This document shows positions 13,232 to 28,577 of a stretch of DNA of 64,000 bases, in pieces. The notes under the pieces were generated by a model. That model had not been told where the DNA came from. It made no database searches and was given only the letters and a program-made list of their open reading frames with translations. This DNA comes from an uncultured Clostridia bacterium. GTDB taxonomy: Bacteria; Bacillota; DTU025; MWDF01. Location of the stretch: contig CAZJHY010000001.1 in the NCBI GenBank assembly GCA_964545975.1, positions 24,094 to 88,093 on the forward strand. The letters run 5' to 3'. Made by a program: the position numbers and the translations under genes. Each line of letters starts with the position of its first letter. Positions within the stretch are counted from its first letter, which is position 1.

Positions 13232-14752
13232 TTGGAGATAGTACCTATCCTCGAAGCGAGGAACATCAGCAAGGAGTTCCCGGGCGTAAAGGCGTTGGAT
13301 GAAGTATCCATACAGGTAAGGCCCGGCGAGGTCCATGTACTGATAGGAGAGAACGGGGCCGGAAAGAGCACGCTGTCCAAGATACTCATGGGAGTGTATA
13401 CCAGCGACAAGGGCGAGATCCTGTTCGATGGTAAGCCCGCCCACATTAGGAACCCTCATGACGCAAGGGCATTAGGCATATGCGGTGTCCATCAGGAGTT
13501 CATGCTTGTACCCTGGATGAACGTCGCACAGAACATCTTCATCAACAGAGAGCCCAGGATTTGGCCGGGGCTTCCCTTCATAGACCACAAGAAGATGCAC
13601 GAGGACAGCAGGAAGCTGCTTTCCTCCTTCAACGTGAACATCAACACCAAGCAGCCGGTGAAATACCTGGACACCGCGCTCCAGCAGATGGTGGAGATAG
13701 TAAAGGCGCTATCTACGAACCCCAAGGTCCTGATACTTGACGAACCGACTGCAGTCCTCACGGACAGGGAGGTCAACAGCCTCTTCGCCCATATAGAGGA
13801 GCTGAGAAGCCGAGGGGTTGCGATCATATACATATCGCACAGGCTTCCTGAGATCAGAAGGATAGGCGACAGGGTCACGGTCCTAAGAGACGGGAAGTAT
13901 GTAGCAACGGTTGACATCAAGGACACCCCCGACGAGGAGCTCATCAAGATGATGGTGGGCAGGAGCGTTTCGCAGCTTTATACCAGAAACCGCCAGGTTC
14001 CCGGGAAAGAGGCCCTGAGGCTTGAGAATTTCAGCGTGAAGGGCGGACCGCAGAATGTCGACCTGGTGCTGCACTACGGAGAGATCATTGGGCTTGCGGG
14101 CCTGATTGGTTCAGGGCGCACCGAGCTTGTCAGGGGCATCATGGGAATTGACCAGCAGACAGGCGGTTCCCTTTACATCGATGGCAACAAAGTCACGGTC
14201 GGAAGCCCTGACAAGGCGATAGGACTGGGGCTGGGGCTTCTGCCTGAGGACCGCAAGAGGTATGGCCTCGCCCTTAAGACGAACATCGCCTGGAATACCA
14301 TAATGGCGAGCCTCAAGCGGGAGTTCCCCAAGGGAGTAGTAAGGGAGCGCAAGGTGCGCGACATCGCCCAGGGCTATGTTAAGCAGCTGAAAATCGCCAC
14401 AGACTCGGTATCTAAGGTGGTGGGCTTCCTAAGCGGAGGCAACCAGCAGAAGGTTGTCGTCGCCAAGTGGATCAACACCAAGGCCAAGATCCTCATCTTC
14501 GACGAACCTACAAGGGGCATCGACGTGGGGGCCAAGGCAGAGGTGCACGCCCTCATGGACAAACTGGTGGCCGAAGGAAACGCGATCATAATGATTTCCT
14601 CCGACCTGCCGGAAGTCCTCGGGATGAGCGACCGCGTCTACACGATATTCCAGTGCCGTTCCATGGGGGACTGCTGCTTCCAGGAGGCGAACCAGCAGAG
14701 AATCGGCTCCCTTATGCTGGGAGTGGGGGTGAAGACAGATGCAAACCAGTAA
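13232..14752 (+). CDS. Sugar ABC transporter ATP-binding protein with duplicated ATPase domains (RbsA/MglA/XylG family)
   Basis: 'LEARNISKEFPGVKALDEVS', Walker A 'GENGAGKST'; second cassette 'LSGGNQQKVVVAKW'. TTG 13232 with a GGGGG RBS is preferred over ATG 13181, which sits in the hairpin. Confidence 0.8.
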   Translation: MEIVPILEARNISKEFPGVKALDEVSIQVRPGEVHVLIGENGAGKSTLSKILMGVYTSDKGEILFDGKPAHIRNPHDARALGICGVHQEFMLVPWMNVAQNIFINREPRIWPGLPFIDHKKMHEDSRKLLSSFNVNINTKQPVKYLDTALQQMVEIVKALSTNPKVLILDEPTAVLTDREVNSLFAHIEELRSRGVAIIYISHRLPEIRRIGDRVTVLRDGKYVATVDIKDTPDEELIKMMVGRSVSQLYTRNRQVPGKEALRLENFSVKGGPQNVDLVLHYGEIIGLAGLIGSGRTELVRGIMGIDQQTGGSLYIDGNKVTVGSPDKAIGLGLGLLPEDRKRYGLALKTNIAWNTIMASLKREFPKGVVRERKVRDIAQGYVKQLKIATDSVSKVVGFLSGGNQQKVVVAKWINTKAKILIFDEPTRGIDVGAKAEVHALMDKLVAEGNAIIMISSDLPEVLGMSDRVYTIFQCRSMGDCCFQEANQQRIGSLMLGVGVKTDANQ

Positions 14753-15704
14753 GCTCATGGGCTTTTTGAGGAAGGTCCCGCCGGCGACATACATCATACT
14801 GCTCATGATAGCCATATACGGCATCGCCGCGCCCGGCTTCTTCACCCTTGGAAACCTCGAGAACGTCGGAAACCAGGCGGCCCCCCTTCTCATCGTCGCC
14901 ATAGGTGTGACCATGGTCATCATGACGGAGGGTACAGACCTTTCGATCGGTTATGTGATGGGCATGGTCGGAGTCGTTGTATCGATTATGCTTAGGGCGA
15001 AAATCTGGATAGGCTGGGCGTTCCTTGCCGGCATCGCGGTAGGGGTGTTCTGCGGCTTCATAAACGGCGTCGCAGTCGCAAAGCTCAAGCTTCCTCCGTT
15101 CATTGCTACGCTTGGTACCGGAAACGTCATATTCGGAATAGGCCTCGTCATAACCGAAGGATACTCCATACAGGCACTTGATCCTGCGCTGCTTTTTCTG
15201 GCAAGCGGCAAGGTGTTCGGAATAAGCATGCCGATACTGATTGCCACGGTGGTCTTCGGGTTATGCTGGGTACTCATGAACTACACGCCGTTCGGGCGCA
15301 ACATAGTCTCTCTCGGAGGCAACTCCGAGGCGCTTAGAGGCGTTGGCCTTAACGTCGGGAAAGCCTCCATATCGGTATACATGATGTGTGGCTTCCTTGC
15401 GGCAATAGGAGGCCTCATAGTGGCGTCAAGGACAGGCTCAGGCTATTCGGCGGCTGCCATGGGATGGGAGTTCGACGCCATCGGAGCCAGTATAATCGGC
15501 GGTACATCCTTCGAGGAGGGCAATGGATCCATAAGCAGGACCGTAATTGGTGTCGCGCTCATATCGATACTCAGAAACGGCCTTAATGTCGTGGGCGTGC
15601 CGAACATGTACCAGTACGCGCTCATCGGCGCCATAGTGCTGACGGCCATAATCCTGGACGTTCGCTTCAGGCAGGCCGCGAAGGGAGGCGTCAAGAGAGT
15701 ATGA
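14739..15704 (+). CDS. Sugar ABC transporter permease (RbsC/branched monosaccharide family)
   Basis: Polytopic; 'GGTSFEEGNGSISRTVIG' conserved permease region. Confidence 0.8.
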   Translation: MQTSKLMGFLRKVPPATYIILLMIAIYGIAAPGFFTLGNLENVGNQAAPLLIVAIGVTMVIMTEGTDLSIGYVMGMVGVVVSIMLRAKIWIGWAFLAGIAVGVFCGFINGVAVAKLKLPPFIATLGTGNVIFGIGLVITEGYSIQALDPALLFLASGKVFGISMPILIATVVFGLCWVLMNYTPFGRNIVSLGGNSEALRGVGLNVGKASISVYMMCGFLAAIGGLIVASRTGSGYSAAAMGWEFDAIGASIIGGTSFEEGNGSISRTVIGVALISILRNGLNVVGVPNMYQYALIGAIVLTAIILDVRFRQAAKGGVKRV

Positions 15705-16696
15705 ACGAAGGTTCAAGGATGAAGGACACCCCCAAGGCGGTCGCAATCGTAAACGACAGGCTCAAGGCAAGGGAGGCCATAGCTCCCCTCTTCAGGCTCA
15801 CGTTCCTGATAGTCCTCATGATCGCACTTTCCATACTCAGCGAGGACTTCTTCACATGGAGCAACCTAATTAACGTTCTCAGGCAGTCGACTTTCCTGAT
15901 AGTAATCGGCCTCGGGCTCACAGGGGTGCTGCTTACCGGAGGCATCGACCTGTCCGTAGGCGGTGTGCTCGCATTCGTGGGCTGCGCGACTGGACAGATG
16001 ATGAGATCCGGCGTTCCGCTTTATCTTGCAGTGCCAATCGGTCTTCTAATCGGAGCGGGAGTCGGATGCTTCAACGGTTTCATGGTGGGGTACATCAAGC
16101 TTCCTCCGTTTGTGGCCACTTACGGTTCCAAGTGGATATCCGAGGGCATGGCGCTGCTTCTTATGCAGGGGCAGGTCATCTACGGCTTCCCGAGGGTGTA
16201 CCGCTGGATCGGCATCGGCTACATAGGACCCATACCAGTGCCCATCATAATTGCTGCCATCCTTGCGGTAATAATGAACTTCCTGTTCGTGAAGACCGTA
16301 TTCGGCAGGCAGGTATATGCACTGGGCGCCAACAAGGAAGCAGCATTCTACTCGGGCATCAAAGTCAAGAAGAACATCATGGTGGTATACACCCTTGCTG
16401 GCCTCATGGCGGGCATTGCCGGCCTTCTGATGCTTGCAAGGCTTGACGCCGCCGAGGTGAACATGGGAGAGGCCCTGCAGCTGCAGTCCCTCGCCGCGGT
16501 CATCATCGGGGGTGCATCCCTTCGCGGAGGCGAGGGCAGCATATTCGGCACGATAATTGGCGCCATAACCCTTACGCTGGTCGTAAACGGGCTTAACCTG
16601 CTTGGCGTGCGCTCTTTGTGGCACTCAGTGGTGCTCGGCGGCGTCATCCTGGCATCCGTGATAATGGACCTGCGCATGAAGAAGCTGGCGCAATAA
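15701..16696 (+). CDS. Sugar ABC transporter permease, second subunit
   Basis: Paralogue of the previous permease ('GGASLRGGEGSIFGTIIG'); ATGA start/stop overlap. Confidence 0.8.
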   Translation: MNEGSRMKDTPKAVAIVNDRLKAREAIAPLFRLTFLIVLMIALSILSEDFFTWSNLINVLRQSTFLIVIGLGLTGVLLTGGIDLSVGGVLAFVGCATGQMMRSGVPLYLAVPIGLLIGAGVGCFNGFMVGYIKLPPFVATYGSKWISEGMALLLMQGQVIYGFPRVYRWIGIGYIGPIPVPIIIAAILAVIMNFLFVKTVFGRQVYALGANKEAAFYSGIKVKKNIMVVYTLAGLMAGIAGLLMLARLDAAEVNMGEALQLQSLAAVIIGGASLRGGEGSIFGTIIGAITLTLVVNGLNLLGVRSLWHSVVLGGVILASVIMDLRMKKLAQ

Positions 16697-16727
16697 GGAT
16701 TAGCAGAAAGAAAAAGGAGGAACACCA

Positions 16728-17537
16728 ATGGCCAACCTTACGATCAGACCCATAAACACCGGTTACGCGGAAACCTACAAGAAGCAGTACCAGTACCATC
16801 ATTCTACCCACAAGTACCACAACGTCGACGACGGAAAGCTTCTTCTGCCCTGCATGGCATTCCTTATCGAGGGCGGAGACAAGCTCGTGCTGGTAGACAC
16901 CGGCATGTCCAACACCGAGATAGCCAACAAGTATCATCATCCGGGTTCGTACCAGCCTGACGGCTTTGCGATACATGAGCAGCTGGCGAAGCTGGGCATC
17001 AAGTGCGAGGACATCGACATTGTCATCTTCACGCACATGCACTGGGACCACATGCACAACATGGAGAAGTTCGTAAACGCCAGGTTCATCGCCCACAAGA
17101 AGGAATGGGAGTTCTGCCAGAACCCCATCCCGCTGTACTACAAATCATACGAGCATCCCAAGCTCGGCATAAAGGCTCCCTTCACTGGCCTTAAGATCGA
17201 GACCGTAGAGGGCGAGCAGGAGATAGTCCCCGGCATAAGGGTGTTCGAGAGCTTCGGGCATTCGCCGGGCCACATGTCCGTGGAAGTCGACTGCGAGGAC
17301 GGATCCTACATCCTCTGCGGCGATGCGGTATTCATCTACGACAACCTTAAGCCCGTGCCGGACATGTTCTATGAGATTACTCCCCCGGCCAGGTATGCCA
17401 ACATCGTCGAGTGCTGGAACAGCATAGTCGAGATGAAGCATAGGGCCAAGGAGCAGCGCTTCATACTGCCCTCCCATGAGCCTGAGATAGAGGAGCTCGC
17501 GAAGAAGTACGGAACTTTCCCGATACCCAAGAAGTAA
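16728..17537 (+). CDS. MBL-fold metallohydrolase, lactonase-like
   Basis: 'IVIFTHMHWDHMHN' (HxHxDH) and 'FGHSPGH'. Strong AAGGAGG RBS. Confidence 0.75.
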   Translation: MANLTIRPINTGYAETYKKQYQYHHSTHKYHNVDDGKLLLPCMAFLIEGGDKLVLVDTGMSNTEIANKYHHPGSYQPDGFAIHEQLAKLGIKCEDIDIVIFTHMHWDHMHNMEKFVNARFIAHKKEWEFCQNPIPLYYKSYEHPKLGIKAPFTGLKIETVEGEQEIVPGIRVFESFGHSPGHMSVEVDCEDGSYILCGDAVFIYDNLKPVPDMFYEITPPARYANIVECWNSIVEMKHRAKEQRFILPSHEPEIEELAKKYGTFPIPKK

Positions 17538-17619
17538 CATCACACCGATTGGGGGTGCGGCCGGGAGGCAGGTCCAAGGGGGCGCGGGCCTCCGAAGACA
17601 GCCAACCCGGCCTTGTCAT

Positions 17620-18843
17620 ATGAAGACTATCGCAGTGATAACCTCGCTGGACACGAAGGGGAAAGAGACCCTCTATATAAAGGATGCGATCGAGAGGTTC
17701 GGCTCGAAGGCTCTCATCATAGACGTAGGGGTCAAGGAGCCGCCATATTTCACGCCTGATATCGCAAGGCACGAGGTGGCCGCCGCCGCCGGCATCGACT
17801 GGGATACGGTGAAGGACAAGGAGAAAAGGGTGAGGATAAGCACCATGACCTCAGGCCTTGAGGTGCTTATACCCAAGCTATATGCCGAGGGGAAGCTTTC
17901 GGCCGTGTTCTCGATGGGAGGCCTTCAGAACACAACGATGGGAACATCGGCGATGAAGACCCTGCCGCTCGGGGTGCCTAAGCTCATGCTTTCCACGATG
18001 GCGTCCAGCAACAGGCCTTTCGGTCCGTTCGTGGGAACCAAGGACATGACCCTCATGCACTCGGTGGGCGACATCCTAGGGGTAAACCCCGTCACCAAGG
18101 CCGTGATGGATAACGCCGTCGGAGCCATCGTGGGGATGGCGGAGCACGCCGGAAACAGGGTGCAGAAAACTGACAGGATCCTTGTGGGTGCCACTATGCT
18201 CGGCGTAACGAACGACGGAGTGAGCCGCGCGGTATCCTACCTCGAGGAGGCAGGCTACGACGTGGTCACCTTCCATGCGAACGGTGCGGGAGGACCGGCC
18301 ATGGAGGAGCTCATAGGACAGGACACGATAGACGCCGCGATGGATCTTACGCTGCATGAGATAGACGCTGAATTCTTCGGGGGGCACTGTTCGGGGGCGA
18401 CCAACAGGCTCCTTATGGCCGCCGAGAAGGGGATACCCCAGGTTGTTTCGCTTGGTGCCTCCGACGTCATAGACTATGAGGTCGTGGACCTCGACAAGGT
18501 AAGGGAGTATGGAAGGCGCAAGTTCGTCTATCAGCACCCCACCATCCAGCACATAAAGCTCATAGAGGAAGAGGCGCACAAGGTCGGGACGGTAATCGGG
18601 GAGAGGCTCTCAAAGGCCAAGGGTCCCCTAACCCTCGTCATACCTAGGGGAGGCTTCCACCAGAGCAGCTACAAAGGCGGTCCCATATGGGATCCTGCCA
18701 TCGACGAGATAATCATAGGACACATACTAAGCAGGATTGCGCCTTCCACAAGGGTGGTAGAGACCGCAGCCCATATCAACGAGCCCGCCTTCAGCAGGGT
18801 GGCGGCCGATGAGATGATTAAGCTTCTGAAGGCCATGCGCTAA
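17620..18843 (+). CDS. UPF0261 (Tm-1-like N-terminal domain) family protein of unknown function
   Basis: 'MKTIAVITSLDTKGKE', 'GGLQNTTMGTSAMKTLPLGVPKLMLSTMASSN', 'MTLMHSVGDILGVN', matching the UPF0261 pattern from memory. Confidence 0.65.
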   Translation: MKTIAVITSLDTKGKETLYIKDAIERFGSKALIIDVGVKEPPYFTPDIARHEVAAAAGIDWDTVKDKEKRVRISTMTSGLEVLIPKLYAEGKLSAVFSMGGLQNTTMGTSAMKTLPLGVPKLMLSTMASSNRPFGPFVGTKDMTLMHSVGDILGVNPVTKAVMDNAVGAIVGMAEHAGNRVQKTDRILVGATMLGVTNDGVSRAVSYLEEAGYDVVTFHANGAGGPAMEELIGQDTIDAAMDLTLHEIDAEFFGGHCSGATNRLLMAAEKGIPQVVSLGASDVIDYEVVDLDKVREYGRRKFVYQHPTIQHIKLIEEEAHKVGTVIGERLSKAKGPLTLVIPRGGFHQSSYKGGPIWDPAIDEIIIGHILSRIAPSTRVVETAAHINEPAFSRVAADEMIKLLKAMR

Positions 18844-18875
18844 GCAGGGCCAGAAGCCTCACAAGGAGGATTCCG

Positions 18876-20132
18876 ATGTTCTACGGACTGCCTTTCGACA
18901 ACCCCGAGTCCATTTATGGCAGGGATTACGTTCTGGGCACCTATTTCGTGACCGGCGTCACAGGAGACGATGCGCTTAATAAGCTGGGCATGTTTGCAGT
19001 CGGCCAGTCCACCGGCACGTGGATGCCGGTGCCCGGCATAACCAGGCAGATGGTGGAGGATCATCAGGGAAGAGTCGTCGGATGCTATCCGGTGCCCGCC
19101 CAGGAGCCCGGCGCCTACGTTCTTAGGGTGGCGTTTCCCTACAGCAACATAGGCGGGTCCATCTCGATGCTGCTTACCACGCTTGCGGGAAACGACGCTT
19201 CGACTGCGCTGTGCGCGAAGCTCATAGACGTGGAGCTTGTCGGCAAGGCGAAGTCGGCCTTCCACGGTCCGCACTTCGGAATAGACGGGGTGAGGAAGCT
19301 CACGGGAGTCTACGACAGGCCCATAGTCATGAATATGATCAAGCCTTGCACGGGCTTTCCGGCTACGGCAGGGGCGGAGTTCTTCTACGCGTCCGGATCA
19401 GGCGGCGTAGACATAATAAAAGATGACGAGCTTATGGGCAACACCAGCTTCAATTCCGTCGCCGACAGGGTGAGGGAGTATGGTAAGGCTCAAGCGAGAA
19501 TCGGAGGAGAGAGGGGCAAGGCCCCTATATACCTTCCCAATGTGACCGACAGGCACGATAAAATGCGCGACAACATCAAGGCGGCGATAGACGGCGGAGC
19601 GAAGGGCGTCATGGTCAACTTCGTCTTCACCGGACTCGACAGCCTTGCCGCGCTTACATCGGAGTTCGGCGACAAGGTGATGTTCCTCGCTCATGCGGCA
19701 GGAGTTGGCGTCATGACCGGTTATCCGCAGGGCTTAAGCACCTCGCTTCTTCTAGGAAGGCTCGGAAGGCTGGCAGGCGCGGACGCGGTGGTCACCCTTT
19801 ATCCTCTCGGCATGGGAGGAGACGGCTTCCAGGAGCTTCAGATGACGGTGCAGAAGCACAGGCTGCCTCTGGGAGATGTCAAGCAAGCCTTGACCGTGGT
19901 CGGAGGAGGCGTCACGCCGCTTACCGTACCGTTTGCGGTGAAGAGCTTCGGCAAGGACATAATCATCGCCGTTGGCGGTGGCATCCAGGGCCACCCGGAC
20001 GGGGCGACGGCAGGCGCAAAGGCCATGATGGCTGCGGTGGATGCGACCATGAAGGGCGTAAGCCTGGAAGACGCGGTTAAGGACAGCCCGGAGCTCGGAA
20101 GGGCGATAACCAGATGGGGCAAGAAGGCTTAA
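18876..20132 (+). CDS. RuBisCO large-subunit-like protein (form IV RLP)
   Basis: 'GQSTGTWMPV' (RuBisCO STGTWTTVWT-like), 'MIKPCTGF' (KPK region, K175 equivalent kept, K177 changed to Cys), 'GGVDIIKDDE' (carbamyl-Lys/KDDE motif), 'AVGGGIQGHPDG' (loop-6/GGG region). 418 aa, no small subunit. AAGGAGG RBS. Confidence 0.8.
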   Translation: MFYGLPFDNPESIYGRDYVLGTYFVTGVTGDDALNKLGMFAVGQSTGTWMPVPGITRQMVEDHQGRVVGCYPVPAQEPGAYVLRVAFPYSNIGGSISMLLTTLAGNDASTALCAKLIDVELVGKAKSAFHGPHFGIDGVRKLTGVYDRPIVMNMIKPCTGFPATAGAEFFYASGSGGVDIIKDDELMGNTSFNSVADRVREYGKAQARIGGERGKAPIYLPNVTDRHDKMRDNIKAAIDGGAKGVMVNFVFTGLDSLAALTSEFGDKVMFLAHAAGVGVMTGYPQGLSTSLLLGRLGRLAGADAVVTLYPLGMGGDGFQELQMTVQKHRLPLGDVKQALTVVGGGVTPLTVPFAVKSFGKDIIIAVGGGIQGHPDGATAGAKAMMAAVDATMKGVSLEDAVKDSPELGRAITRWGKKA

Positions 20133-20169
20133 GGGCCGCCCGAATGATGACCGTATGGAGGTAAAGCAG

Positions 20170-20793
20170 ATGGAAGATCTTATCATGAGCATAAAAAGGG
20201 ACGTGGAGCTCGCCTGCAGGAGGGCGTACACGAGGGGAATACAGACCGGAAGCGGCGGAAACGTCAGCGCAAGGATACCGGGCACGGACCATATGATAGT
20301 GAAGCCAAGCAAGGTGTCGCTCATCGAATGCGACCCCGAGACGCTTATCATAACCGACTTCGACGGAAACTTGGTGCAGGGCTCTCTTCCTCCTACGAGG
20401 GAGGCGGTGCTTCACGGCTGGCTGTATAAGAAGTTCGGCAAGATCGGAGCGGTGGTTCACACCCATTCGCCCTGGGCTATATCCTGGTCCTTCACCAGGA
20501 GGGACCTTCCCAATATTACCATGCATACTCAGCTTAAGCTGGGATGCCCCATCCCGGTCAGGTTCTTCTCCAGCCCCAAGGGGGTTCTGAAGGAGGAGAT
20601 GCCAGAAGTCTACGGCCTTTTCGAGAAGGAACCGAACCTCGCCGCCTTCATACTCGGTGCGCACGGTGTGGTCGCAGTCGGCGACAATATCATAGAGGCC
20701 GAGCACACGGCGGAGCTCATAGAGGAGACGGCACAGATAGCATACCTGCACGAGATGGGATTGAAGCTCGGGATGTTCCCCGAGGGCAGATAA
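20170..20793 (+). CDS. Class II aldolase/adducin-family protein
   Basis: 'GIQTGSGGNVSARIPG', 'AVVHTHSPWAISWS'. ATG 20170 with GGAGG RBS preferred over 20155. Confidence 0.8.
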   Translation: MEDLIMSIKRDVELACRRAYTRGIQTGSGGNVSARIPGTDHMIVKPSKVSLIECDPETLIITDFDGNLVQGSLPPTREAVLHGWLYKKFGKIGAVVHTHSPWAISWSFTRRDLPNITMHTQLKLGCPIPVRFFSSPKGVLKEEMPEVYGLFEKEPNLAAFILGAHGVVAVGDNIIEAEHTAELIEETAQIAYLHEMGLKLGMFPEGR

Positions 20794-20822
20794 GACGAAG
20801 ACAATCCGAACGGAGTGATCAT

Positions 20823-21284
20823 ATGTACAGGAAGATGGTAATAGGCTGCGACGAGGCGGCCTGTGAGCTGAAAAACGCCCTTATCGAGGTCCTTAAGAAG
20901 AAGGGAATTGAGTATGAGGACGTCGGAGTGCCGGATGCAAGCGACAAGACCTATTATCCCCTGGTGGCAGAGAAGGTGGCCGAGGCGATAATAGAAAGCG
21001 GCTATGAGAAGCACGGGATGCTCCTCTGCGGAACGGGCATCGGCATGGCCATATCCGCGAACAAGCACCCCGGGGTATTTGCCGCTGTATGCCACGACCA
21101 GTATTCTACCGAGAGGGCGAAGCTGAGCAACAACTGCAACGTCATCTGCATGGGGGCAAGGGTCATAGGGCCAGAGCTTGCCAAGAAGAACCTGGAGCAA
21201 TGGCTTGAGCTGACGTTCAAGGACGGCTCCTCGACCCCTAAGGTGGAGGCTGTGAAGGATATCGAGAAGAGGCATATGAAATGA
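20823..21284 (+). CDS. RpiB/LacAB-family sugar-phosphate isomerase
   Basis: 'MKIGCDEAA', 'LLCGTGIGMAISANKHPGVFAA', 'NCNVICMGARVIG'. The upstream part of track ORF 20544 is an artefactual N-terminal extension. Confidence 0.8.
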   Translation: MYRKMVIGCDEAACELKNALIEVLKKKGIEYEDVGVPDASDKTYYPLVAEKVAEAIIESGYEKHGMLLCGTGIGMAISANKHPGVFAAVCHDQYSTERAKLSNNCNVICMGARVIGPELAKKNLEQWLELTFKDGSSTPKVEAVKDIEKRHMK

Positions 21285-22075
21285 GGAGCCCGCTTCTTGT
21301 CGGCACGAACCTCAAGATGTACAAGGGCGTGAAGGAGACGCTGGAGTTCCTTTCGCGCCTTGCGGGAAACGTCAGCCACATAGGCAGCGAAGACATGACG
21401 CTCTTCGTCATACCCTCCTACCTTGCCCTTCATGCGGCATGCGGGTCTGATGCGCACAGCAGGATACTCCTTGGCGCGCAGAATCTGCACTGGGAGGACT
21501 CCGGGCAGTTCACCGGTGAGATATCCCCCATGATGCTCAAGGAGATAGGCATAGATATCGCTGAGATCGGCCACTCGGAACGAAGGCAGCTTTTCGGTGA
21601 GACGGACGTGACAGTGGGGCTTAAGGCCAAGGCAGCGCTCAGGCACGGCATGAGGGCCCTGGTATGCATAGGGGAGACCGCAGACGACAAGGCGTCGGGC
21701 ATTACCTATGAGAAGCTGAGGATGCAGGTGAAGGTGGCCTTAAAGGGGATTTCTGCGGATGAGCTCGAGGGGCTTTGGGTAGCATACGAGCCGGTATGGG
21801 CCATCGGGATCCACGGGGTCCCGGCTGAGCCCGGATACGCCGAGAAGAGCCACAGGATGATAAAAGACGTGCTGGAAGAGCTTTACCCTAATAAGGGCGC
21901 AGGCGTTCCCGTGCTGTACGGCGGAAGCGTCAACATGGAAAACGCCATGGAGCTCATCGTCCAGCCGAGCATAGACGGCTTGTTCATAGGAAGGACCGCT
22001 TGGGACGCGGACAGGTTCGCGTCGCTGATCAAGGATGTCCTCCCCTTGTGGAAGGCCAAGGCTGAGAGAGAATAG
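21281..22075 (+). CDS. Triose-phosphate-isomerase (TIM) family protein, divergent paralogue, possibly a tetrulose-phosphate isomerase
   Basis: 'LVGTNLKMYKG', 'AQNLHWEDSGQFTGEISPMMLKEIG', 'IGHSERRQ', 'YEPVWAIG', 'YGGSV'. ATGA overlap with the upstream gene. Confidence 0.7.
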   Translation: MRSPLLVGTNLKMYKGVKETLEFLSRLAGNVSHIGSEDMTLFVIPSYLALHAACGSDAHSRILLGAQNLHWEDSGQFTGEISPMMLKEIGIDIAEIGHSERRQLFGETDVTVGLKAKAALRHGMRALVCIGETADDKASGITYEKLRMQVKVALKGISADELEGLWVAYEPVWAIGIHGVPAEPGYAEKSHRMIKDVLEELYPNKGAGVPVLYGGSVNMENAMELIVQPSIDGLFIGRTAWDADRFASLIKDVLPLWKAKAERE

Positions 22076-22104
22076 GGCAAGGCTTACGAAGGCGGTGTGA
22101 TGCA

Positions 22105-22776
22105 ATGGCGGACATGGTCATGGAGGCGAAAAGGCAGTTAATAGAGATCGGAAGGCAGATAGCTGCCAAGGGACTTGTGATAGGACCCGGCGGAAATACC
22201 AGCTTAAGGGCAGGCGCCCTCATGGTGATATCCGCCAGCGGCTCTTCATTCGAGTGCTCCGACGAGAGCGACTACGTCGCGATAGACATAGAGACAGGAA
22301 AACAGGCCGACGGCGGCAAGAGGCCGTCTTCCGAAGTGCTGATGCACCTTGAGTGCTACAGGAGGCGCCCGGATGTAAACGCTGTAGTCCATACCCATCC
22401 GACGTGGTCGACATCTGTAGCAAGCTCGGGCACCAAGATGCCCCCGATGTTCCCGGATTACGTCGTGTTCGTGGGCAAGCCCGCGACCCTGGATTACGTG
22501 ATACCGACGACGAAGCTTCTGGCCGATGCCGTGGCCGAAGTCATAGGGGAGCATAATGTGGTGCTCATGAGCAATCACGGGGTGCTTGCCGTCGCAGGCG
22601 ACCTCAAGATGGCGCTATTAAGGGTGGAGCTGGCAGAGGAGAACGCAAGGATGCTCGTGATAGCAAACTCCCTCGGCAAGCCGCGATCCCTTACGGATGC
22701 CGAAGTCCAGGCGATATTTGACCTGGAGAGCGAGAAGTACAGGCAGAGGCTTCTGAAAAACGAGGGCGGGAAGTAG
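22105..22776 (+). CDS. Class II aldolase/adducin-family protein
   Basis: 'GLVIGPGGNTSLRAG', 'AVVHTHPTWSTS', 'SNHGVLAVAGD'. Confidence 0.8.
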   Translation: MADMVMEAKRQLIEIGRQIAAKGLVIGPGGNTSLRAGALMVISASGSSFECSDESDYVAIDIETGKQADGGKRPSSEVLMHLECYRRRPDVNAVVHTHPTWSTSVASSGTKMPPMFPDYVVFVGKPATLDYVIPTTKLLADAVAEVIGEHNVVLMSNHGVLAVAGDLKMALLRVELAEENARMLVIANSLGKPRSLTDAEVQAIFDLESEKYRQRLLKNEGGK

Positions 22777-22798
22777 TCCTAAAAAGGAGGACGCACCA

Positions 22799-24271
22799 TT
22801 GTCCGACAGGCTTTTCATGGGGATAGACGTGGGCACGGGCGGAGCCAGGGTCATAGTCTGCGACGAGTACGGGTTGCCCCTGGCGGAAAGCTCGAGGCCG
22901 TTTGCCGCAGGTGCCGGCGCATCTGACATGCCCCAGGGCTGGCATCAGCAGTCGCCCGCAGCCTGGTGGGACGCGACTTCCGCATGTATAAGGCAGGTCA
23001 TGGGCTCACCCGGACTCGGCGGAAATCCTGGCAGGGTGTTCTCTGTTTCCGTCACATCCACATCAGGTACTGTGATCCCGCTTAGGGAGGATTGCGAACC
23101 GCTCTGGGATGCGGTCATGTACAACGACAGCAGGTCGTCCGCGCAGGCGGAAAGGGCGAACGAGGCGCTTAAGGAATTATGCGGGAAGCTCGCCTACAGG
23201 TTCGACACATCCTTCGGGCTTCCGAAGATGCTATGGTTCATGGACAGCAAGCCTGAGCTGTTCAGAAGGACCAGATTCTTCGTCCACGCTGGCGATTATA
23301 TTATCGGGAAGCTCTGCGGCTGCTTCGGTTTCACCGACTATTCCAACTCGCTGAAGTCTGGATACGACATCGATGAGCTGATATGGCCGAAGGAGATAGA
23401 GGAGAAACTGGGCGTCCCGGCGTCCAAACTGCCGGAAGTGCTCGCCCCGGGCACGGTAGTCGGGAAGGTCTGCGCCGCCTGCTCCGCAGAGACGGGCCTT
23501 CCGGAAAGCACCAACGTCGCGCTGGGCATGACGGACGGCTGCGCCTCGCAGATTGCATCGGGTGCCGCGTCCTTAGGCGACTGGAACACCACGATCGGCA
23601 CAACGCTTGTAATCAAGGGGGTCACCGAGAGGCTCCTCTTCGACCCGAAGGGAAGGATATACAGCCACAGGCATCCCGACGGGCACTGGATGCCAGGCGG
23701 GGCCAGCAACGTCGGCGGCGACTGCATAAGAAGCAACTTCCGCGACGATGAGCTGGATACGCTGAACGCGTCCGTGCGCCCTGAGAAGCCGACAGGCATG
23801 CTGGTGTACCCTCTGGAGAAGAAGGGCGAGAGGTTCCCGAACAGAGATCCTTTGGCAGAGGGGTTCATAATGGGAAGCCCATCAGGAAGGCCCGAGCTCT
23901 ATCAGGCCTACCTTGAGGGTGTTGCGCTGGTGGAGAAGATGTCATACGAGATGCTTCAGAGCTTGGGGGCGGCAATCGGTGACACGATCTTTGCGGCGGG
24001 AGGCGCCACGAAAAGCGAGCCATGGCTCAAGGTAAGGTCGAATATGCTCGACCGGCGCATTGCAGTCCCGGAGATTGCAGGAGGATTCATGGGAGCCGCC
24101 ATACTAGCAGCTTCCCTCTCCCATTGGGGCTCGCTCGGTGAGGCTGCCAAAAACATGGTAAAAATTTCCAAGACGATATGCCCGGACCCTGCCGCTGTCG
24201 ATGCCTATAAGGATAAGTACGGGCAGTTCATAAGAGAGATGGGAAGCAGGGGATATACCCTGGAGGGATGA
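22799..24271 (+). CDS. FGGY-family carbohydrate kinase
   Basis: 'FMGIDVGTGGARVIV' N-terminal actin-like motif; about 490 aa; TTG start with AAGGAGG RBS. Confidence 0.8.
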   Translation: MSDRLFMGIDVGTGGARVIVCDEYGLPLAESSRPFAAGAGASDMPQGWHQQSPAAWWDATSACIRQVMGSPGLGGNPGRVFSVSVTSTSGTVIPLREDCEPLWDAVMYNDSRSSAQAERANEALKELCGKLAYRFDTSFGLPKMLWFMDSKPELFRRTRFFVHAGDYIIGKLCGCFGFTDYSNSLKSGYDIDELIWPKEIEEKLGVPASKLPEVLAPGTVVGKVCAACSAETGLPESTNVALGMTDGCASQIASGAASLGDWNTTIGTTLVIKGVTERLLFDPKGRIYSHRHPDGHWMPGGASNVGGDCIRSNFRDDELDTLNASVRPEKPTGMLVYPLEKKGERFPNRDPLAEGFIMGSPSGRPELYQAYLEGVALVEKMSYEMLQSLGAAIGDTIFAAGGATKSEPWLKVRSNMLDRRIAVPEIAGGFMGAAILAASLSHWGSLGEAAKNMVKISKTICPDPAAVDAYKDKYGQFIREMGSRGYTLEG

Positions 24272-24275
24272 TGAT

Positions 24276-25673
24276 ATGAGCATTTACAAGGCCTGCGACA
24301 TAAGGGGAGTCTACCCTTCGTCGCTCGACGAGAAGACGTCATACGATATAGGAGCGGCTTTGGGGGAGATGCTCGGCCCTGTAAGCATGCTCGTCGCAGG
24401 CGACGTGAGGGTCAGCACGCCGCCTTTGAAGCAAAGCCTTATAAACGGCCTTGTGGACGCCGGATGCGAAGTAGTGGACATCGGCATGGCCCCGACCCCG
24501 GCCTTCTACTACGCGCTTCATAAGCTGGGCACCGAGTCGGGCGTGACGGTGACGGCATCCCATAATCCGGCCAAGTACAACGGCTTCAAGATAGCGCCGC
24601 ACGGGCAGCCCATGACTGAAGACGTGATGGACGACCTGAGGAAGATGGTCGAAGCTGGAGGATTCAAGCCATATGGGCAAGGGAGCGTAAGGAAGGCTGA
24701 GGTCATCGAGGATTACAAGAGATTCGTGCTTGATAAGATAGGAGAGCTAACGGGAACGAAGTGCAGCGCTCATGGTTCGAGTAATGCCCTCAAAGCCGTG
24801 GTGGACTGCGGCAACGGCTGCTACAGCACGATAGCCCCTGAAGTTCTAAGGCAAGCTGGCATCGCGGTTGAGGAGCTCTATTGCTGGGAGGATGGAACTT
24901 TCCCTAACAGGGAGCCAAACCCAGCTGTAGCTGAGAATCTCGAGGCTTTATGCGGCAAGGTCAGAGATACGGGGGCAGACCTTGGCATTGCCTTCGACGG
25001 GGACGGTGACAGGGTGGTCTTCGTGGACGAGCTGGGCAAAGTGGTCCCTAGCGACAATGCGATAGCACTTTTCGCCGGCTTCCTCCTTAAGAATCACCCC
25101 GGCTCGAAGGTGGTTTTCGACATCAAGTGCTCAAGCCTTGTGTCGGATTCGATCAAGGCGGCGGGCGGCATTCCAGTGATGGAGAAGTCAGGCCACGCTT
25201 ACATCAAGAACAACCTGCTGAGAAACGGCGCGGTTTTCGCAGGCGAGATCAGCGGGCACTTCTTCTTCCAGGTGCTCAAGGGGGATGACGGGCTGTTCGC
25301 GGCTCTTCTGATGGCCGAGATCATGATGTCGGAGGGCAGAAGCCTGGGGAAGATGGTGGAGTCGCAGCCGAAGTACTTCACTACAAGAGACTTCAGGATA
25401 CCGTTCTCGGGGAGCACGGCCGAGCTGTTCGGAAGGCTCAAAGCGCGCCTTGAGGCAAGCGGAGGCGCAAACCTGTCGTACCTGGACGGCATAAGGGCGG
25501 AGTTTTCTGAAGGCTGGGGGCTTATAAGGGCATCAGTCACTGAGCCACTGGTTACGCTGAGGTTCGAGGGGAAGTCGTTGGAGAGCCTTGATAGGATAAG
25601 GGATAGCTTCCTTGCTGCAGATGAGGACTTGCTTGATGCCGTAAGGGAGGTTTGGGCAAACCATCTTCCTTAG
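24276..25673 (+). CDS. Phosphohexomutase-family phosphomutase (PGM/PMM-like)
   Basis: Active-site 'VTASHNPAKYNGFK', metal loop 'FDGDGDR'. Confidence 0.8.
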   Translation: MSIYKACDIRGVYPSSLDEKTSYDIGAALGEMLGPVSMLVAGDVRVSTPPLKQSLINGLVDAGCEVVDIGMAPTPAFYYALHKLGTESGVTVTASHNPAKYNGFKIAPHGQPMTEDVMDDLRKMVEAGGFKPYGQGSVRKAEVIEDYKRFVLDKIGELTGTKCSAHGSSNALKAVVDCGNGCYSTIAPEVLRQAGIAVEELYCWEDGTFPNREPNPAVAENLEALCGKVRDTGADLGIAFDGDGDRVVFVDELGKVVPSDNAIALFAGFLLKNHPGSKVVFDIKCSSLVSDSIKAAGGIPVMEKSGHAYIKNNLLRNGAVFAGEISGHFFFQVLKGDDGLFAALLMAEIMMSEGRSLGKMVESQPKYFTTRDFRIPFSGSTAELFGRLKARLEASGGANLSYLDGIRAEFSEGWGLIRASVTEPLVTLRFEGKSLESLDRIRDSFLAADEDLLDAVREVWANHLP

Positions 25674-25685
25674 CCGAATGGACGT

Positions 25686-26372
25686 CTACTTCTCGGTGAA
25701 CTCCCTCATATAGCACTCGTATTTGCTGCAGTTCACCTGTATTCTCCTGTTTACGCTCCGGATGAATCCTTCGTTGGCAAGCTCGTTCATTAGCTTGCTT
25801 ACGGTCACCCTTGCAGCTCCTACGATGACTCCCAGCTCATAGTGCGTGTATCTCACCTTGAGCTCATACCAGCCGGGGTCGGCCTCGGCTTCCCTGTCGA
25901 CAGAGGAGCAGAGAAGCCTTGCTATCCTGTCCTTGCATGAGTTGAAGGTCAGGTTTTCAATCTCGAACCTGGTAATCAGGAGCTTCGTCGCCAGGCAACG
26001 GATGAATGCGTCCCTGAAGACAGCGCTGCTGTCCAGAAGCTGCCTCACCTTGTCCGGCGGTATCTTGCAAAGGACGACATCGGTCTCGGCTTGGGAGTAA
26101 AGTCCGGTCTTCCTTCCCAGGTAGAAGCCCATCTCACCGAAGAGCCAGCCCGGAGTGAGAGCATAGAGGACCTTTTCAAGCCCGTCCTCGTTCGCCATGA
26201 AATGCTTGGTCCTGCCCGACTTGATGTACAAGACGCCGCCGAAATCGCTCCCGGGCACAGAGAAGAGCGTCTTGGCAGGATAGGTAACCCTAATCGAGTT
26301 CTGCTCGATTATCTTCTCCAGTGCCTCGTTGTATGCATCGGGCATTAAGAGCCCCGTCTCCTCAAGGCGCAA
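25686..26372 (-). CDS. Crp/Fnr-family transcriptional regulator
   Basis: cNMP-binding beta-roll ('GWLFGEMGFY') and C-terminal HTH ('ELGVIVGAARVTVSKLMNELANEGFI'). Confidence 0.8.
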   Translation of the reverse strand: MRLEETGLLMPDAYNEALEKIIEQNSIRVTYPAKTLFSVPGSDFGGVLYIKSGRTKHFMANEDGLEKVLYALTPGWLFGEMGFYLGRKTGLYSQAETDVVLCKIPPDKVRQLLDSSAVFRDAFIRCLATKLLITRFEIENLTFNSCKDRIARLLCSSVDREAEADPGWYELKVRYTHYELGVIVGAARVTVSKLMNELANEGFIRSVNRRIQVNCSKYECYMREFTEK

Positions 26373-26598: not shown

Positions 26599-27513
26599 TT
26601 GATAAAACCTACCGGCTCATGGGTGGCGATGCCGACCCCTTTCAATCAGGATGAAACCATCGACTTCGGTGGATTCAAGACGCTCATCGACAGGCAGATA
26701 GAGTACGGGACCTCTTTATTGTTCGTGCTCGGATCGTGCGGAGAGACCACGCTTCTTACGATTGATGAGAAGAAGCAGATAGTCAAGCAGGTCGTAGCGA
26801 TGACCAAGGGGCGCATTCCGGTGTTCTTCAACGCATCCGCCCCCACTACGGCCCAGAGCGTAGAGTTTGCCAAGTTCTGCGAGGCGGAGCACGCCGACGG
26901 TGTGATATTCACCGTGCCGCCATATGTGCTCATACCGCAGAATGCGGTATATGAGCACCTCAACACGTGCATGTCAGCGACCGGCCTTCCCTGCGGAATC
27001 TACAACAACCCTTCCAGGGTGGGCGTGCACATCGAACCTGAGACGATAGCGAAGCTTTCGGCCAACAATCCCAACTTCATAGTGGACAAGGAAGCCATGC
27101 CCAGCGTAAAGCAGCTTGTGGAAGTCAAGCGCAAGTGCGGCGACAACATCAACATACTCTGCTGCGACTTCCCTAACTACTCCATAGTGCTTCCAACACT
27201 AGCAATAGGTGGAAACGGAACCGCGAACATAGGAGGAAACGTCATACCTGAGGAGATGGCCGCAATCTCCAGGCCGTGGGACAGCATCGAGAAGATGTTT
27301 GAGGCGCGCGAGCTGTACTTCAAGTATTTCCCCGTCCTTCAGGGCCTGTATATGTTCTCGAACCCCATCGTGGTCAAGGCGGCCATGAAGATGCTCGGCC
27401 TTCCCGGCGGGCCGCTCAGGAAGCCCTACCTAGAGCTCTCAGGGCAGAAGTACGACGAGTTCGAGGCGCTCCTCAAGGAAATGGGCATAGTCGAGAAATA
27501 TGGCGTCAAGTAA
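26599..27513 (+). CDS. DapA/NAL-family class I aldolase/lyase (second copy)
   Basis: 'VAMPTPFNQDETID', 'FVLGSCGETTLL', 'GIYNNPSRVG'. TTG start with AAGGAGGG RBS. Confidence 0.75.
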   Translation: MIKPTGSWVAMPTPFNQDETIDFGGFKTLIDRQIEYGTSLLFVLGSCGETTLLTIDEKKQIVKQVVAMTKGRIPVFFNASAPTTAQSVEFAKFCEAEHADGVIFTVPPYVLIPQNAVYEHLNTCMSATGLPCGIYNNPSRVGVHIEPETIAKLSANNPNFIVDKEAMPSVKQLVEVKRKCGDNINILCCDFPNYSIVLPTLAIGGNGTANIGGNVIPEEMAAISRPWDSIEKMFEARELYFKYFPVLQGLYMFSNPIVVKAAMKMLGLPGGPLRKPYLELSGQKYDEFEALLKEMGIVEKYGVK

Positions 27514-27602: not shown

Positions 27603-28577
27603 ATGAAGAAGACTTCCATGCGCCTGATGCTGGCAGCAGCCCTCGTGATCTCGATCATGTTCTCGTCCGTGGCAGCCGCACCTAAGTTCCTTACCATATC
27701 CACCGGCCCTGTGGGCGGGGAATGGTACATACTTGGCGGAATACTCTCCGAGCTCCTGAAACCGGTGCTTCCTGACACCAAGGTAACCGCAACAACCGGC
27801 GGCGGCGTCGCAAACCTCAGCACAGTGGCCTCCGGCAAGAGCGACATAGGCACCACGCAGGATCAGCTCCTGTATGATGCCCGCAATGGCACGACTGACT
27901 TCACCTCAGGAAAGCTCACCAACGTCGTCGCCATCGGATACCTGGCAGACATCTACATGAGCGTATTCCTCGTGCGCGAGGACTACAACATAACATCTCT
28001 TGATGACCTTGCAGCCAGGAAGATCGGCATGCGCATACTAACCGCCCCCACGGGCTCGACGCCTTCAAGGGCCGCGGTCAGGATGCTTGAGGAATACGGA
28101 GTGACCCCCGATCTCCTTAAGTCATGGGGGGGAAGCTTGAGCTACGTCGCCTATGCGGACGCAAGCTCGATGATCAGGGACGGCCATGCCGACGCCTATG
28201 TGGGCCCCATCATGCCCGCCATCATAGAGCTCACCGTCTCCCGCAAGATGAAGATGCTGCCGGTGAAAGAGACCGTCCTTAAGGCCATGACTGCCAAGTA
28301 CGCATATGGCAGGGCCACAATACCCGCTGGAGCATATGACTTCGTGAAGGCCAACACGCCCGTCATGACCGAGTCGCCCGTCCTCATCGTCAGGGATGAC
28401 GTCGACGAGCAGACCGTATACCTCATAACCAAGGCGATAGCCGAGAACCCTGCGAAGATCCAGGGCGCCGGCGCGACCTATGCAAAGTTCGACCCCAAGA
28501 TGATGCCCAACATATCGGGCGGTCCCATACATCCCGGAGCCCTCAGGTACTATAAGGAGAAGGGCTGGGTCAAGTAG
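27603..28577 (+). CDS. TAXI-family TRAP transporter solute-binding subunit
   Basis: Signal peptide, 'LTISTGPVGGEWYILGGILSELL', 'KVTATTGGGVANLSTVASGKSDIG'. Confidence 0.8.
   Translation: MKKTSMRLMLAAALVISIMFSSVAAAPKFLTISTGPVGGEWYILGGILSELLKPVLPDTKVTATTGGGVANLSTVASGKSDIGTTQDQLLYDARNGTTDFTSGKLTNVVAIGYLADIYMSVFLVREDYNITSLDDLAARKIGMRILTAPTGSTPSRAAVRMLEEYGVTPDLLKSWGGSLSYVAYADASSMIRDGHADAYVGPIMPAIIELTVSRKMKMLPVKETVLKAMTAKYAYGRATIPAGAYDFVKANTPVMTESPVLIVRDDVDEQTVYLITKAIAENPAKIQGAGATYAKFDPKMMPNISGGPIHPGALRYYKEKGWVK

Follow-up and report, generated by a model that had tools for sequence, protein, structure and literature searches.

Within a 64-kb stretch of DNA from an uncultured Clostridia bacterium, referred to in its entirety as the window, two open reading frames (ORFs) overlap on the forward strand. 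The first (20823-21284) encodes a 153 aa protein of the RpiB/LacAB family (PF02502 LacAB_rpiB, E = 6e-47, residues 6-143) and the second (21281-22075) a 264 aa protein of the triose-phosphate isomerase (TIM) family (PF00121 TIM, E = 1.5e-72, residues 6-251), both matches being far beyond chance level. The junction reads CATATGAAATGAGG, in which the ATG of the TIM gene (21281-21283) is laid over the TGA of the RpiB gene (21282-21284) as ATGA, the arrangement described in the original prediction. It should be noted that the ORF list also gives the RpiB frame in an upstream-extended form (20544-21284), which runs into the preceding gene. As homologues of the RpiB protein are 152-153 aa long and a GGAG lies approximately 8 nt 5′ of the ATG at 20823, this is the likely start of the gene.

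The isomerase pair belongs to a 13-gene operon on the forward strand (12152-25673). The operon begins with a ribose-type ABC importer, consisting of a periplasmic sugar-binding protein (12152-13162; PF13407 Peripla_BP_4, E = 4.6e-59), an ATPase with two ABC domains (13181-14752; PF00005 was found twice in the L003 homologue) and two permeases (14739-15704 and 15701-16696; PF02653 BPD_transp_2 in the L001 and L003 homologues). These are followed by a lactonase-like hydrolase of the metallo-beta-lactamase (MBL) fold with an HxHxDH motif (16728-17537; PF00753, E = 3e-24), a UPF0261 (Tm-1-like) protein proposed to be an ATP-dependent kinase (17620-18843; PF06792 and PF23189), a form IV RuBisCO-like protein (RLP; 18876-20132; PF00016, E = 2.5e-39) and a class-II-aldolase-fold protein of 212 aa, which we call aldB (20155-20793; PF00596, E = 9e-37). 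The best NCBIfam models for the MBL protein were lactonases (4-pyridoxolactonase and AiiA), all of which it matched far under their cut-offs. Downstream of the TIM gene lies a FucA-like class-II-aldolase-fold protein of 223 aa, aldC (22105-22776; PF00596, E = 1.7e-42), present only in the closest relatives (L001, L002, L011 and L012). Two lineage-specific extensions complete the operon: an FGGY-family carbohydrate kinase (22799-24271; PF00370 and PF02782), which scored 194 bits on the XylB model against a cut-off of 380, and a member of the phosphohexomutase family (PGM/PMM; 24276-25673; PF02878, PF02879, PF02880 and PF00408).

The operon is flanked on both sides by genes on the reverse strand. 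A Crp/Fnr-family regulator is convergent with its 3′ end (25686-26372; PF00027 and PF13545 in a 95%-identical homologue from L002). On the 5′ side a divergent class-II-aldolase/adducin-fold protein of 215 aa, aldA (11066-11713; PF00596, E = 6e-48), passed the cut-off of none of the NCBIfam equivalogs; a 60%-identical copy occupies the same position in L012 and aldA is probably associated with the operon. The AT-rich region between aldA and the operon (11714-12151) carries an inverted repeat, TTGTATA/TATACAA (11992-12027), and is a possible promoter/operator. Promoter and terminator scans gave results at chance level, with matches upstream of the operon no more numerous than in shuffled sequence, and an Rfam search of the window gave no match.

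We found the same cassette, comprising the sugar-binding protein, ABC importer, MBL protein, UPF0261 protein, RLP, RpiB, TIM and aldB, in Bacillota, Acidobacteriota and Chloroflexota. Identities across the cassettes of other genomes were 46-88% for the sugar-binding protein, 49-86% for the ABC ATPase and 54-98% for the MBL protein. The UPF0261 gene adjoins the RLP gene in all 19 loci with an RLP identity of at least 47%, and aldB is present in 16 of these 19. An RpiB gene lies within 5 kb of a window-type TIM gene in 20 of 23 RLP loci. Some cassettes (L091, L031 and L018) have no RpiB and others (L016 and the Chloroflexota loci) have neither isomerase. No canonical tpiA was found in the window or in the approximately 90 loci compared. 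The RpiB-TIM pair also occurs in other contexts, with DUF1537 and PdxA genes in L005, with a Dak1/Dak2 kinase in L007 and in a microcompartment locus in L090. A full-text search of the literature for RLP together with UPF0261, or for RLP together with erythrulose and lactonase, returned no description of the cassette.

The best match to the TIM protein in the PDB was 11ef, the enzyme LerI of Brucella melitensis that isomerises L-erythrulose-1-phosphate (202.5 bits, E = 8e-59), while the top-scoring ordinary TIM in this comparison reached 179 bits. Identity was 45% to 11ef and 45-49% to LerI and the Rhizobium etli paralogue taken together, compared with 35-42% to six housekeeping TIMs. By these measures the protein is nearer to the solved LerI than to TpiA, by a moderate margin. 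The motifs LVGTNLKMYKG, IGHSERRQ and YEPVWAIG, on which the protein had been called divergent with recognisable catalytic His and Glu regions, are all there. An alignment of 48 sequences shows no variation at K12, H98 or E170, and all four catalytic residues (Asn10, Lys12, His98 and Glu170) are invariant across the clade of window-type TIMs. The protein shares the TIM fold and the catalytic Lys, His and Glu with both LerI and TpiA. Loop 6 (AIGIHGVPA; clade pattern AIGxxG[IV]PA) is one residue longer than in housekeeping TIMs and loop 8 is DGLFIGRTAW (clade pattern DGLFIGR[ST]AW, as in LerI), whereas the six housekeeping TIMs have AIGTGKxAT and DGxLVGGASL together with AGNWKM. AGNWKM, AIGTGK and GGASL are missing from the window protein. 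Its first catalytic loop is GTNLKMYK, where LerI has GTSWKMNK, and it resembles TIM in having Asn at position 10, where the Brucella and R. etli LerI proteins have Ser. The loop-6 insertion and the loop-8 GR[ST]AW are common to the window protein, its clade, Brucella 11ef and the paralogues of R. etli and Rhizobium anhuiense.

In a neighbour-joining tree of 63 sequences (300 bootstraps) the window-type TIMs formed a clade of their own with 91% bootstrap support, five housekeeping TIMs grouped together at 96% and LerI branched between them, so that the protein did not cluster with housekeeping TpiA. This clade is large, mostly from Bacillota and without a characterised member. Neither curated models nor structure discriminate further. 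The protein narrowly passed the NCBIfam equivalog for triose-phosphate isomerase (TPI; NF000722, 295.8 bits against a cut-off of 293) and also TIGR00419 (151 against 131), so these models cannot settle its identity; no LerI model was among its NCBIfam matches. The label 'triose-phosphate isomerase' does not discriminate either, because the LerI-type paralogue of R. etli receives it from the same annotation pipeline. An AlphaFold model gave a TIM barrel with a pLDDT of 94.4, for which Brucella LerI was the first match by E-value, although every TIM, housekeeping TpiA included, scored a TM of 0.85-0.91. The gene adjoins and overlaps an RpiB gene, as LerI genes adjoin and often overlap theirs. 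The TIM protein is most likely a LerI/EryH-type isomerase.

The RpiB protein passed the RpiB subfamily model (162 against a cut-off of 135) and scored 154.3 bits on the lineage-specific NCBIfam DerI equivalog from Rhizobiales (NF051858; cut-off 240). It shares with DerI/EryI the RpiB fold, the catalytic-Cys motif, conserved here as CGTGIG, and a LerI-type TIM as its partner. An HDxxSxER...LSNN motif was found in the window protein, the RpiB of the R. etli apiose cluster and PDB 5ifz; this region reads HDQYSTERAKLSNN in the window, HDTYSAERAxxSNN in R. etli and 5ifz, and SEPYSAQLSRQHND in E. coli RpiB. The residues at the positions of E. coli RpiB His10 and His99 are not His in the window protein. 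It is about equally far from 5ifz (39.6% identity) and E. coli RpiB (38.5%), and its identity to DerI-type proteins is about 40-45%; on these values sequence alone does not decide between a DerI-type and an ordinary RpiB, and by score the two cannot be separated.

The RLP scored below the cut-off of every NCBIfam RLP/RuBisCO model. It retains a KDDE motif and has KPC in place of KPK. Its top NCBIfam model is MtnW, the enolase of methionine salvage, which together with the adjoining class-II-aldolase-fold gene recalls the MtnB/MtnW arrangement of that pathway. However, the scores on the MtnW models (266 against 409 and 220 against 514 bits) and on the model for the dehydratase MtnB (71 against 137) are far under the cut-offs, there are no MtnK or MtnA genes, and the context is that of a sugar transporter. 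In addition, Asn106, invariant in the RLP clade, occupies the position of MtnW Lys98 (Geobacillus kaustophilus numbering), a catalytic residue of that enzyme. We rejected the RLP as an MtnW-type 2,3-diketo-5-methylthiopentyl-1-phosphate (DK-MTP-1-P) enolase on these scores and this substitution, and as an OiaC/OiaX orthologue on a score of 128 bits against a cut-off of 700 (NF042437). By sequence the RLP belongs to an uncharacterised clade. Members of this clade occur in at least three phyla, from digesters, soils and guts, and their present annotation is either 'DK-MTP-1-P enolase' or no name at all.

The top PDB match of the UPF0261 protein was 9mpy, itself a UPF0261 protein (E = 1.3e-43). 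In the alignment, Lys13 of the window protein falls on 9mpy residue 16, an ATP-contact position (residue 16 of MarK and Lys20 of Tm-1). Catalysis by a UPF0261 protein was first reported for MarK, an ATP-dependent kinase (PMC12624787), and we propose the window protein as a putative kinase. The two top NCBIfam models of aldB, both under cut-off, were L-ribulose-5-phosphate 4-epimerase (117 bits) and 3-oxo-tetronate-4-phosphate decarboxylase (85 bits). Since aldB stays with the RLP and UPF0261 genes in loci without TIM and RpiB (L016, L019, L022 and L041), it would act upstream of the isomerases, and for the same reason we gave less weight to aldB being an EryC-like erythrulose-1-phosphate epimerase.

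The closest characterised system is the D-apiose cluster of Rhizobium, described in 2018 (R. etli p42f), which has an RLP decarboxylase, a DUF1537 kinase, LerI and DerI. Like the operon described here it combines a ribose-type ABC importer, a kinase, an RLP, a TIM paralogue and an RpiB, and it ends in D-erythrose-4-phosphate (E4P). The two differ in that the kinase is DUF1537 there and UPF0261 here, the RLPs share ~30% identity and belong to different clades, and the operon here has MBL lactonase and class-II-aldolase-fold genes. In this comparison no Gfo/Idh/MocA or other oxidoreductase was found in or beside the window-type cassette.

On the family memberships, LerI-type signatures, operon structure and cross-phylum conservation given above, we infer substrates and reactions for all enzymes of the operon. 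The ribose-type ABC system would bring in a neutral substrate, which the MBL-fold lactonase would open to an acid sugar and the UPF0261 kinase would phosphorylate. The RLP and aldB may then turn the resulting phospho-keto-acid into a four-carbon ketose phosphate, probably through an enolisation and then either decarboxylation or C-C cleavage. The published accounts describe LerI as converting L-erythrulose-1-phosphate to D-erythrulose-4-phosphate and DerI as converting this to E4P. The TIM paralogue would carry out the former reaction (that of LerI/EryH), shifting the carbonyl from C2 to C3, and the RpiB-family enzyme the latter (that of DerI/EryI), supplying the pentose-phosphate pathway. The two isomerase steps are the best-supported part of this scheme, and homology and gene context agree with the predicted EryH/LerI-like and EryI/DerI-like pair yielding E4P; we are much less sure of the steps upstream of the isomerases and of the imported compound. 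As the best explanation of the whole, we favour, with some reserve, a translationally coupled isomerase pair that ends a sugar-lactone catabolic operon and carries tetrulose phosphates to E4P. At rather less than even confidence, we suggest that the cassette may be an undescribed, redox-neutral pathway suited to anaerobes, leading from a keto-lactone to E4P. By mass balance, two kinds of substrate are candidates: a lactone of formula C5H6O5 (for instance erythroascorbate or an oxidised derivative of apiose), from which E4P and CO2 would arise, or dehydroascorbate/2,3-diketogulonate, which would give a C4 and a C2 product.

Other readings of the pair must be weighed against this. The TIM paralogue could be a dedicated true TPI that converts dihydroxyacetone phosphate (DHAP) from the class-II aldolases aldB and aldC to glyceraldehyde-3-phosphate, with RpiB acting on another sugar or sugar phosphate, for example the aldose before FGGY phosphorylation or ribose-5-phosphate. 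The locus encodes an FGGY kinase and three proteins of the class-II-aldolase fold, and such proteins of DHAP-aldolase type could provide the TIM protein with an ordinary role. In L090 the RpiB-TIM pair is followed by genes for an aldolase, an FGGY kinase and a microcompartment that processes aldehydes, a layout typical of the cleavage of a ketose-1-phosphate to DHAP and an aldehyde. The catalytic residues are all kept, the TPI equivalog is passed by 2.8 bits and some activity is said to be common to LerI and TpiA. We nevertheless consider a true TPI unlikely. Loops 6 and 8, which grip the phosphate, carry exactly the LerI changes, seen in none of the housekeeping TIMs examined, the clade stands apart from those TIMs, the TPI label is also borne by the LerI-type paralogue of R. 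etli, and the minimal cassette, which lacks the FGGY kinase, still has RpiB-TIM directly after the RLP. The idea of an ordinary housekeeping tpiA and rpiB placed in the operon by chance is very improbable. Public annotation of the homologues is 'triose-phosphate isomerase' and there is no second TIM gene in the window. However, the pair is ATGA-coupled inside a transporter-led catabolic operon rather than a gap-pgk-tpi context, the housekeeping signature motifs are absent and RLP and UPF0261 remain associated with the pair across phyla. The LerI-type loops 6 and 8 and the separate clade argue against housekeeping TpiA as the identity of the TIM protein.

A LerI/DerI-like pair could also act on different substrates, such as other stereoisomers of tetrulose or tetrose phosphates or five-carbon keto-phosphates, with an end product other than E4P. 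The modest identities to the characterised LerI and to DerI-type RpiBs, the Asn for Ser at position 10 of the TIM protein, an RLP clade and kinase family unlike those of the apiose pathway, and the addition of a phosphomutase and an FGGY kinase in the extended operon are all consistent with this. Against it, the RpiB-TIM pairing is a hallmark of the route from tetrulose phosphates to E4P in three characterised systems, and the same TIM clade occurs with the Dak-type kinase of L007, an arrangement which has been reported for L-erythrulose catabolism. We regard different substrates as quite doubtful, and retain the conversion of tetrulose phosphates to E4P as our preferred reading.

The funnelling of tetrulose phosphates into the pentose-phosphate pathway by LerI/EryH and DerI/EryI is already known and the pair described here is another instance of it. 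The pair is of use as a fixed point from which to interpret the rest of the operon. It indicates what an uncharacterised RLP clade probably produces, so that the function of this RLP can be tested directly with E4P as the read-out, and the operon suggests a physiological role in sugar-acid metabolism for the UPF0261 kinases, for which one activity is on record, from a recent report. The pair also flags a systematic mis-annotation, in which the whole clade of window-type TIMs is labelled 'triose-phosphate isomerase'. If the keto-lactone pathway is correct, the reaction of the RLP in this cassette would be new and the kinase would be the first of the UPF0261 family to act on a sugar acid.

As originally predicted, the window carries a 153-aa RpiB-like ORF (20823–21284, + strand; PF02502 LacAB_rpiB, E 6e−47) and a 264-aa TIM-like ORF (21281–22075, + strand; PF00121 TIM, E 1.5e−72), the TGA of the first being overlapped by the ATG of the second (ATGA at 21281–21284), and all of the motifs which had been quoted for the TIM-like protein were found in its sequence. 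A mechanical ORF at 20544–21284 (+) extends the RpiB ORF upstream so that it runs over aldB, and is unlikely to be a gene as listed. No second TIM gene was found within the 64-kb window.

The pair lies inside an operon of 13 tightly packed + strand genes (12152–25673; gaps ≤ 83 nt, three overlaps), which encode in order a ribose-type binding protein, an ABC ATPase, two permeases, an MBL-fold lactonase-like protein, a UPF0261 protein (17620–18843), a RuBisCO-like protein (RLP), aldB (class-II-aldolase fold), RpiB, TIM, aldC (class-II-aldolase fold), an FGGY kinase and a phosphohexomutase. A third aldolase-fold gene, aldA, lies upstream in divergent orientation and a Crp-family regulator gene lies downstream in convergent orientation; no oxidoreductase gene was found in or beside the operon. 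Upstream of the binding-protein gene, the AT-rich intergenic region contains an inverted repeat (TTGTATA...TATACAA, 11992–12027) beside a TACAAT box; this repeat is a possible operator/promoter of the operon. A mechanical ORF at 12194–13210 (−; 338 aa) is an antisense shadow of the binding-protein gene and an unlikely gene as listed. DHDPS/DapA-family genes are found on either side of the region (8972–9868 and 26599–27513), the downstream one being followed at 27603–30506 by a gene for a TAXI-type (NMT1_3) binding protein and then by a long ORF which we take for a candidate fused TRAP permease; this is probably a separate uptake/lyase module.

We compared the TIM-like protein to all solved structures and found that the top sequence match was LerI, the L-erythrulose-1-phosphate isomerase of Brucella melitensis (11ef/11eg; 202.5 bits, E 8e−59), against 179 bits at best for ordinary TIMs. 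The start of the 11ef chain, WIGTSWKMNK, agrees with the translation of a Brucella eryH primer (MTKFWIG). Pairwise identity was 44.7% to 11ef and 48–49% to Rhizobium paralogues, the best annotated plasmid relatives, compared to 35–42% for six housekeeping TIMs (the E. coli TIM reference sequence agreeing with PDB 4iot). The motifs say more than these scores about the identity of the protein: housekeeping TIMs have AGNWKM, AIGTGKxAT and DGxLVGGASL, and Brucella LerI, the Rhizobium paralogues, the window protein and its whole clade have in common GT[SN]xKM, AIGxxG[IV]PA, which is one residue longer than its housekeeping counterpart, and DGLFIGR[ST]AW. Loops 6 and 8 of TIM hold the substrate phosphate and shut the active site, and the common remodelling of both is therefore a derived character tying the window protein to LerI. 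The catalytic His and Glu were recognisable as predicted, with Asn10, Lys12, His98 and Glu170 invariant among 48 clade members. The AlphaFold model is a TIM barrel (pLDDT 94.4), and a fold search with it placed Brucella LerI first by E-value; as all TIMs gave TM 0.85–0.91, structure cannot tell LerI from TIM. No LerI model was found among the NCBIfam matches. The TPI equivalog was passed by a margin of 2.8 bits; as the LerI-type paralogue of R. etli carries the same TPI product name, this label does not tell the two families apart.

The RpiB-like protein passed the RpiB subfamily model (162 vs a cut-off of 135 bits) and missed the Rhizobiales equivalog for DerI, the isomerase of D-erythrulose-4-phosphate (154 vs 240 bits). 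It was 45% identical to the RpiB of the R. etli apiose cluster and 44% to PDB 3qd5, with 39.6% for 5ifz and 38.5% for E. coli RpiB; these identities and model scores therefore do not single out a substrate. The catalytic-Cys motif CGTGIG is kept, and HDxxSxER...LSNN, which in E. coli RpiB is replaced by SEPYSAQLSRQHND, is common to this protein, its R. etli counterpart and 5ifz. His99 of E. coli RpiB helps to open the furanose ring; as a lead, its loss would suit an acyclic tetrose phosphate.

We used an alignment of RLP relatives to scan one genome per species, which returned 80 loci, the nearest being from uncultured Clostridia and Firmicutes MAGs (RLP identity 96% and 82%). The core order SBP-ABC-permease-permease-MBL-UPF0261-RLP-RpiB-TIM-aldB (SBP, sugar-binding protein) recurred widely, in Bacillota (Christensenellaceae, Oscillospiraceae, Lachnospiraceae isolates and Aneurinibacillus) and outside them in Acidobacteriota (Korobacteraceae) and Anaerolineaceae; aldC, FGGY and the mutase were found only in the closest relatives of the window. 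Nineteen loci had an RLP identity of at least 47% and flanks of 5 kb or more to either side; of these, UPF0261 was present in all 19, aldB in 16, TIM in 14 and RpiB and MBL in 13 each. RpiB lay ≤ 5 kb from a TIM of the window-type clade in 20 of the 23 RLP loci with such a TIM, and TIM homologues with 71–94% identity sit in the same operon in two loci (L001, L002).

Window-type TIMs were also found in other contexts: with RpiB, Dak1/Dak2 kinase subunits and an ABC system (L007), an arrangement which has been reported for L-erythrulose catabolism via DHA-kinase-type phosphorylation; with RpiB, a DUF1537 kinase and PdxA in Blautia (L005); in the cassette but without RpiB (L091); and, in one case, alone (L092). 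A microcompartment locus (L090:6543–14786; ENA ERZ27268866 k141_21741) is headed by RpiB and a window-type TIM (P0093), followed by a 277-aa class-II aldolase, two BMC shell proteins, EutN, an aldehyde dehydrogenase, PTAC, an FGGY kinase, more EutN and an Fe-ADH. A third form of RLP-RpiB-TIM association is the actinobacterial variant seen in Pseudonocardia charpentierae (L058:8920–16125; also L043, L051, L062, L068 and L075), with, in order, a Zn-ADH, RLP, RpiB, a fused Dak1/Dak2 kinase, a very divergent TIM-like protein (GSSLKMYF, GHAERR, YEPNWAIGAPEPAP, DGMFLGRFAHDP) and an FGGY kinase. RLP loci of Microbacteriaceae and Propionibacteriaceae (L054:17769–18578(−), L056, L057, L069, L073) have a still more divergent TIM-like ORF close to the RLP and on the other strand (GCSSKSYF, GHPERVK, YEPTWAIG), in which the Ser of GHSERR is gone. 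A variant without MBL, TIM and RpiB (L016:121–12306; also L019, L022) has, in order, aldB, SBP, ABC, two permeases, GntR, an aldehyde:ferredoxin oxidoreductase, UPF0261, RLP and a URO-D-like protein, which suggests that the RLP/UPF0261/aldB core is able to feed another downstream route. In six Chloroflexota loci (L045, L049, L065, L074, L076, L081), an MBL gene and then two UPF0261 genes in tandem lie upstream of the RLP at a distance of several kb, and no TIM or RpiB was found within 10 kb.

The RLP failed all curated models (MtnW 266 vs 409 bits, form III 207 vs 497, OiaX 128 vs 700), and the solved structures nearest to it were 4nas (208 bits) and the MtnW enolases (191 bits), with a form III RuBisCO barely behind (181 bits). 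Its clade keeps KDDE, which in the RuBisCO motif comprises the carbamylated Lys and the metal ligands, and two Gly-rich segments which we equate with the P1 phosphate site. In place of KPK it has KPC, the Arg295 position is taken by Ala, and Asn106 stands at the position of the catalytic Lys98 of MtnW. This residue pattern fits a metal-dependent enolising enzyme which would act on a mono-phosphorylated substrate. MtnW itself was rejected on its model score and on Asn106, which takes the place of the catalytic lysine. The first reported catalytic activity of the UPF0261 family is that of an ATP-dependent kinase, MarK (PMC12624787), in which the change E16K raised kinase activity about 1600-fold. 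Lys13 (LDTKG) of the window UPF0261 protein is native at this ATP-contact position, which is also that of the ATP-contacting Lys20 of tomato Tm-1, and the protein plausibly stands in for the kinase of the apiose pathway, which belongs to DUF1537. The MBL protein has only a distant likeness to lactonases (NCBIfam models). As aldB is kept with RLP and UPF0261 even in the absence of TIM and RpiB (L016, L019, L022, L041), we assigned it to the upstream part of the route, where it would be the partner of the RLP and, on the model of OtnC or MtnB, a decarboxylase or a dehydratase; a role as tetrulose-phosphate epimerase we consider less likely.

The prediction that the TIM-like protein stands apart from housekeeping TpiA held in a distance-based NJ tree of the TIM family (63 sequences, 252 columns, 300 bootstraps), in which the window-type clade splits off at 91% bootstrap, five housekeeping TIMs group at 96% and the LerI group branches between; the distance trees were built without M. 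smegmatis LerI and DerI. It is highly improbable that the pair are plain housekeeping genes. A dedicated TPI, with TIM serving DHAP-releasing aldolases and RpiB acting on another sugar, would suit the aldolase-fold genes of the operon and the microcompartment locus, but the LerI-type loops of the TIM-like protein and the minimal cassette without an FGGY kinase make this unlikely. The 45–49% identity to LerI-type proteins would also accommodate action of the pair on related but different substrates, which we consider unlikely. The pair is best read as LerI-like and DerI-like isomerases.

In the proposed route, a neutral lactone would be imported and then hydrolysed, the acid sugar would be phosphorylated, RLP and aldB would convert it to an erythrulose phosphate, and the LerI-like TIM paralogue and RpiB would convert this to erythrose-4-phosphate. 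As the cassette has no redox enzyme, the oxidation level of its substrate must from the outset equal that of tetrose + CO2 or, alternatively, that of tetrulose + C2 acid. From stoichiometry, the former would speculatively be a keto-pentonic acid C5H8O6 (lactone C5H6O5) and the latter, as speculatively, could be exemplified by dehydroascorbate + 2 H2O = erythrulose + oxalate. The design in which an RLP feeds a LerI/DerI pair is established, as in the Rhizobium D-apiose pathway, where the decarboxylase product is reportedly L-erythrulose-1-phosphate, passed on to LerI and DerI. In this oxidative D-apiose pathway (Carter et al. 2018), RLPs decarboxylate or cleave 3-oxo-isoapionate-4-phosphate. 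In Brucella, EryH (TpiA2) is the published equivalent of LerI and EryI (RpiB) that of DerI. The window RLP system resembles the D-apiose pathway in this design but is non-orthologous to it, and the operon surrounding the pair represents a novel version of the RLP-dependent route for acid sugars.
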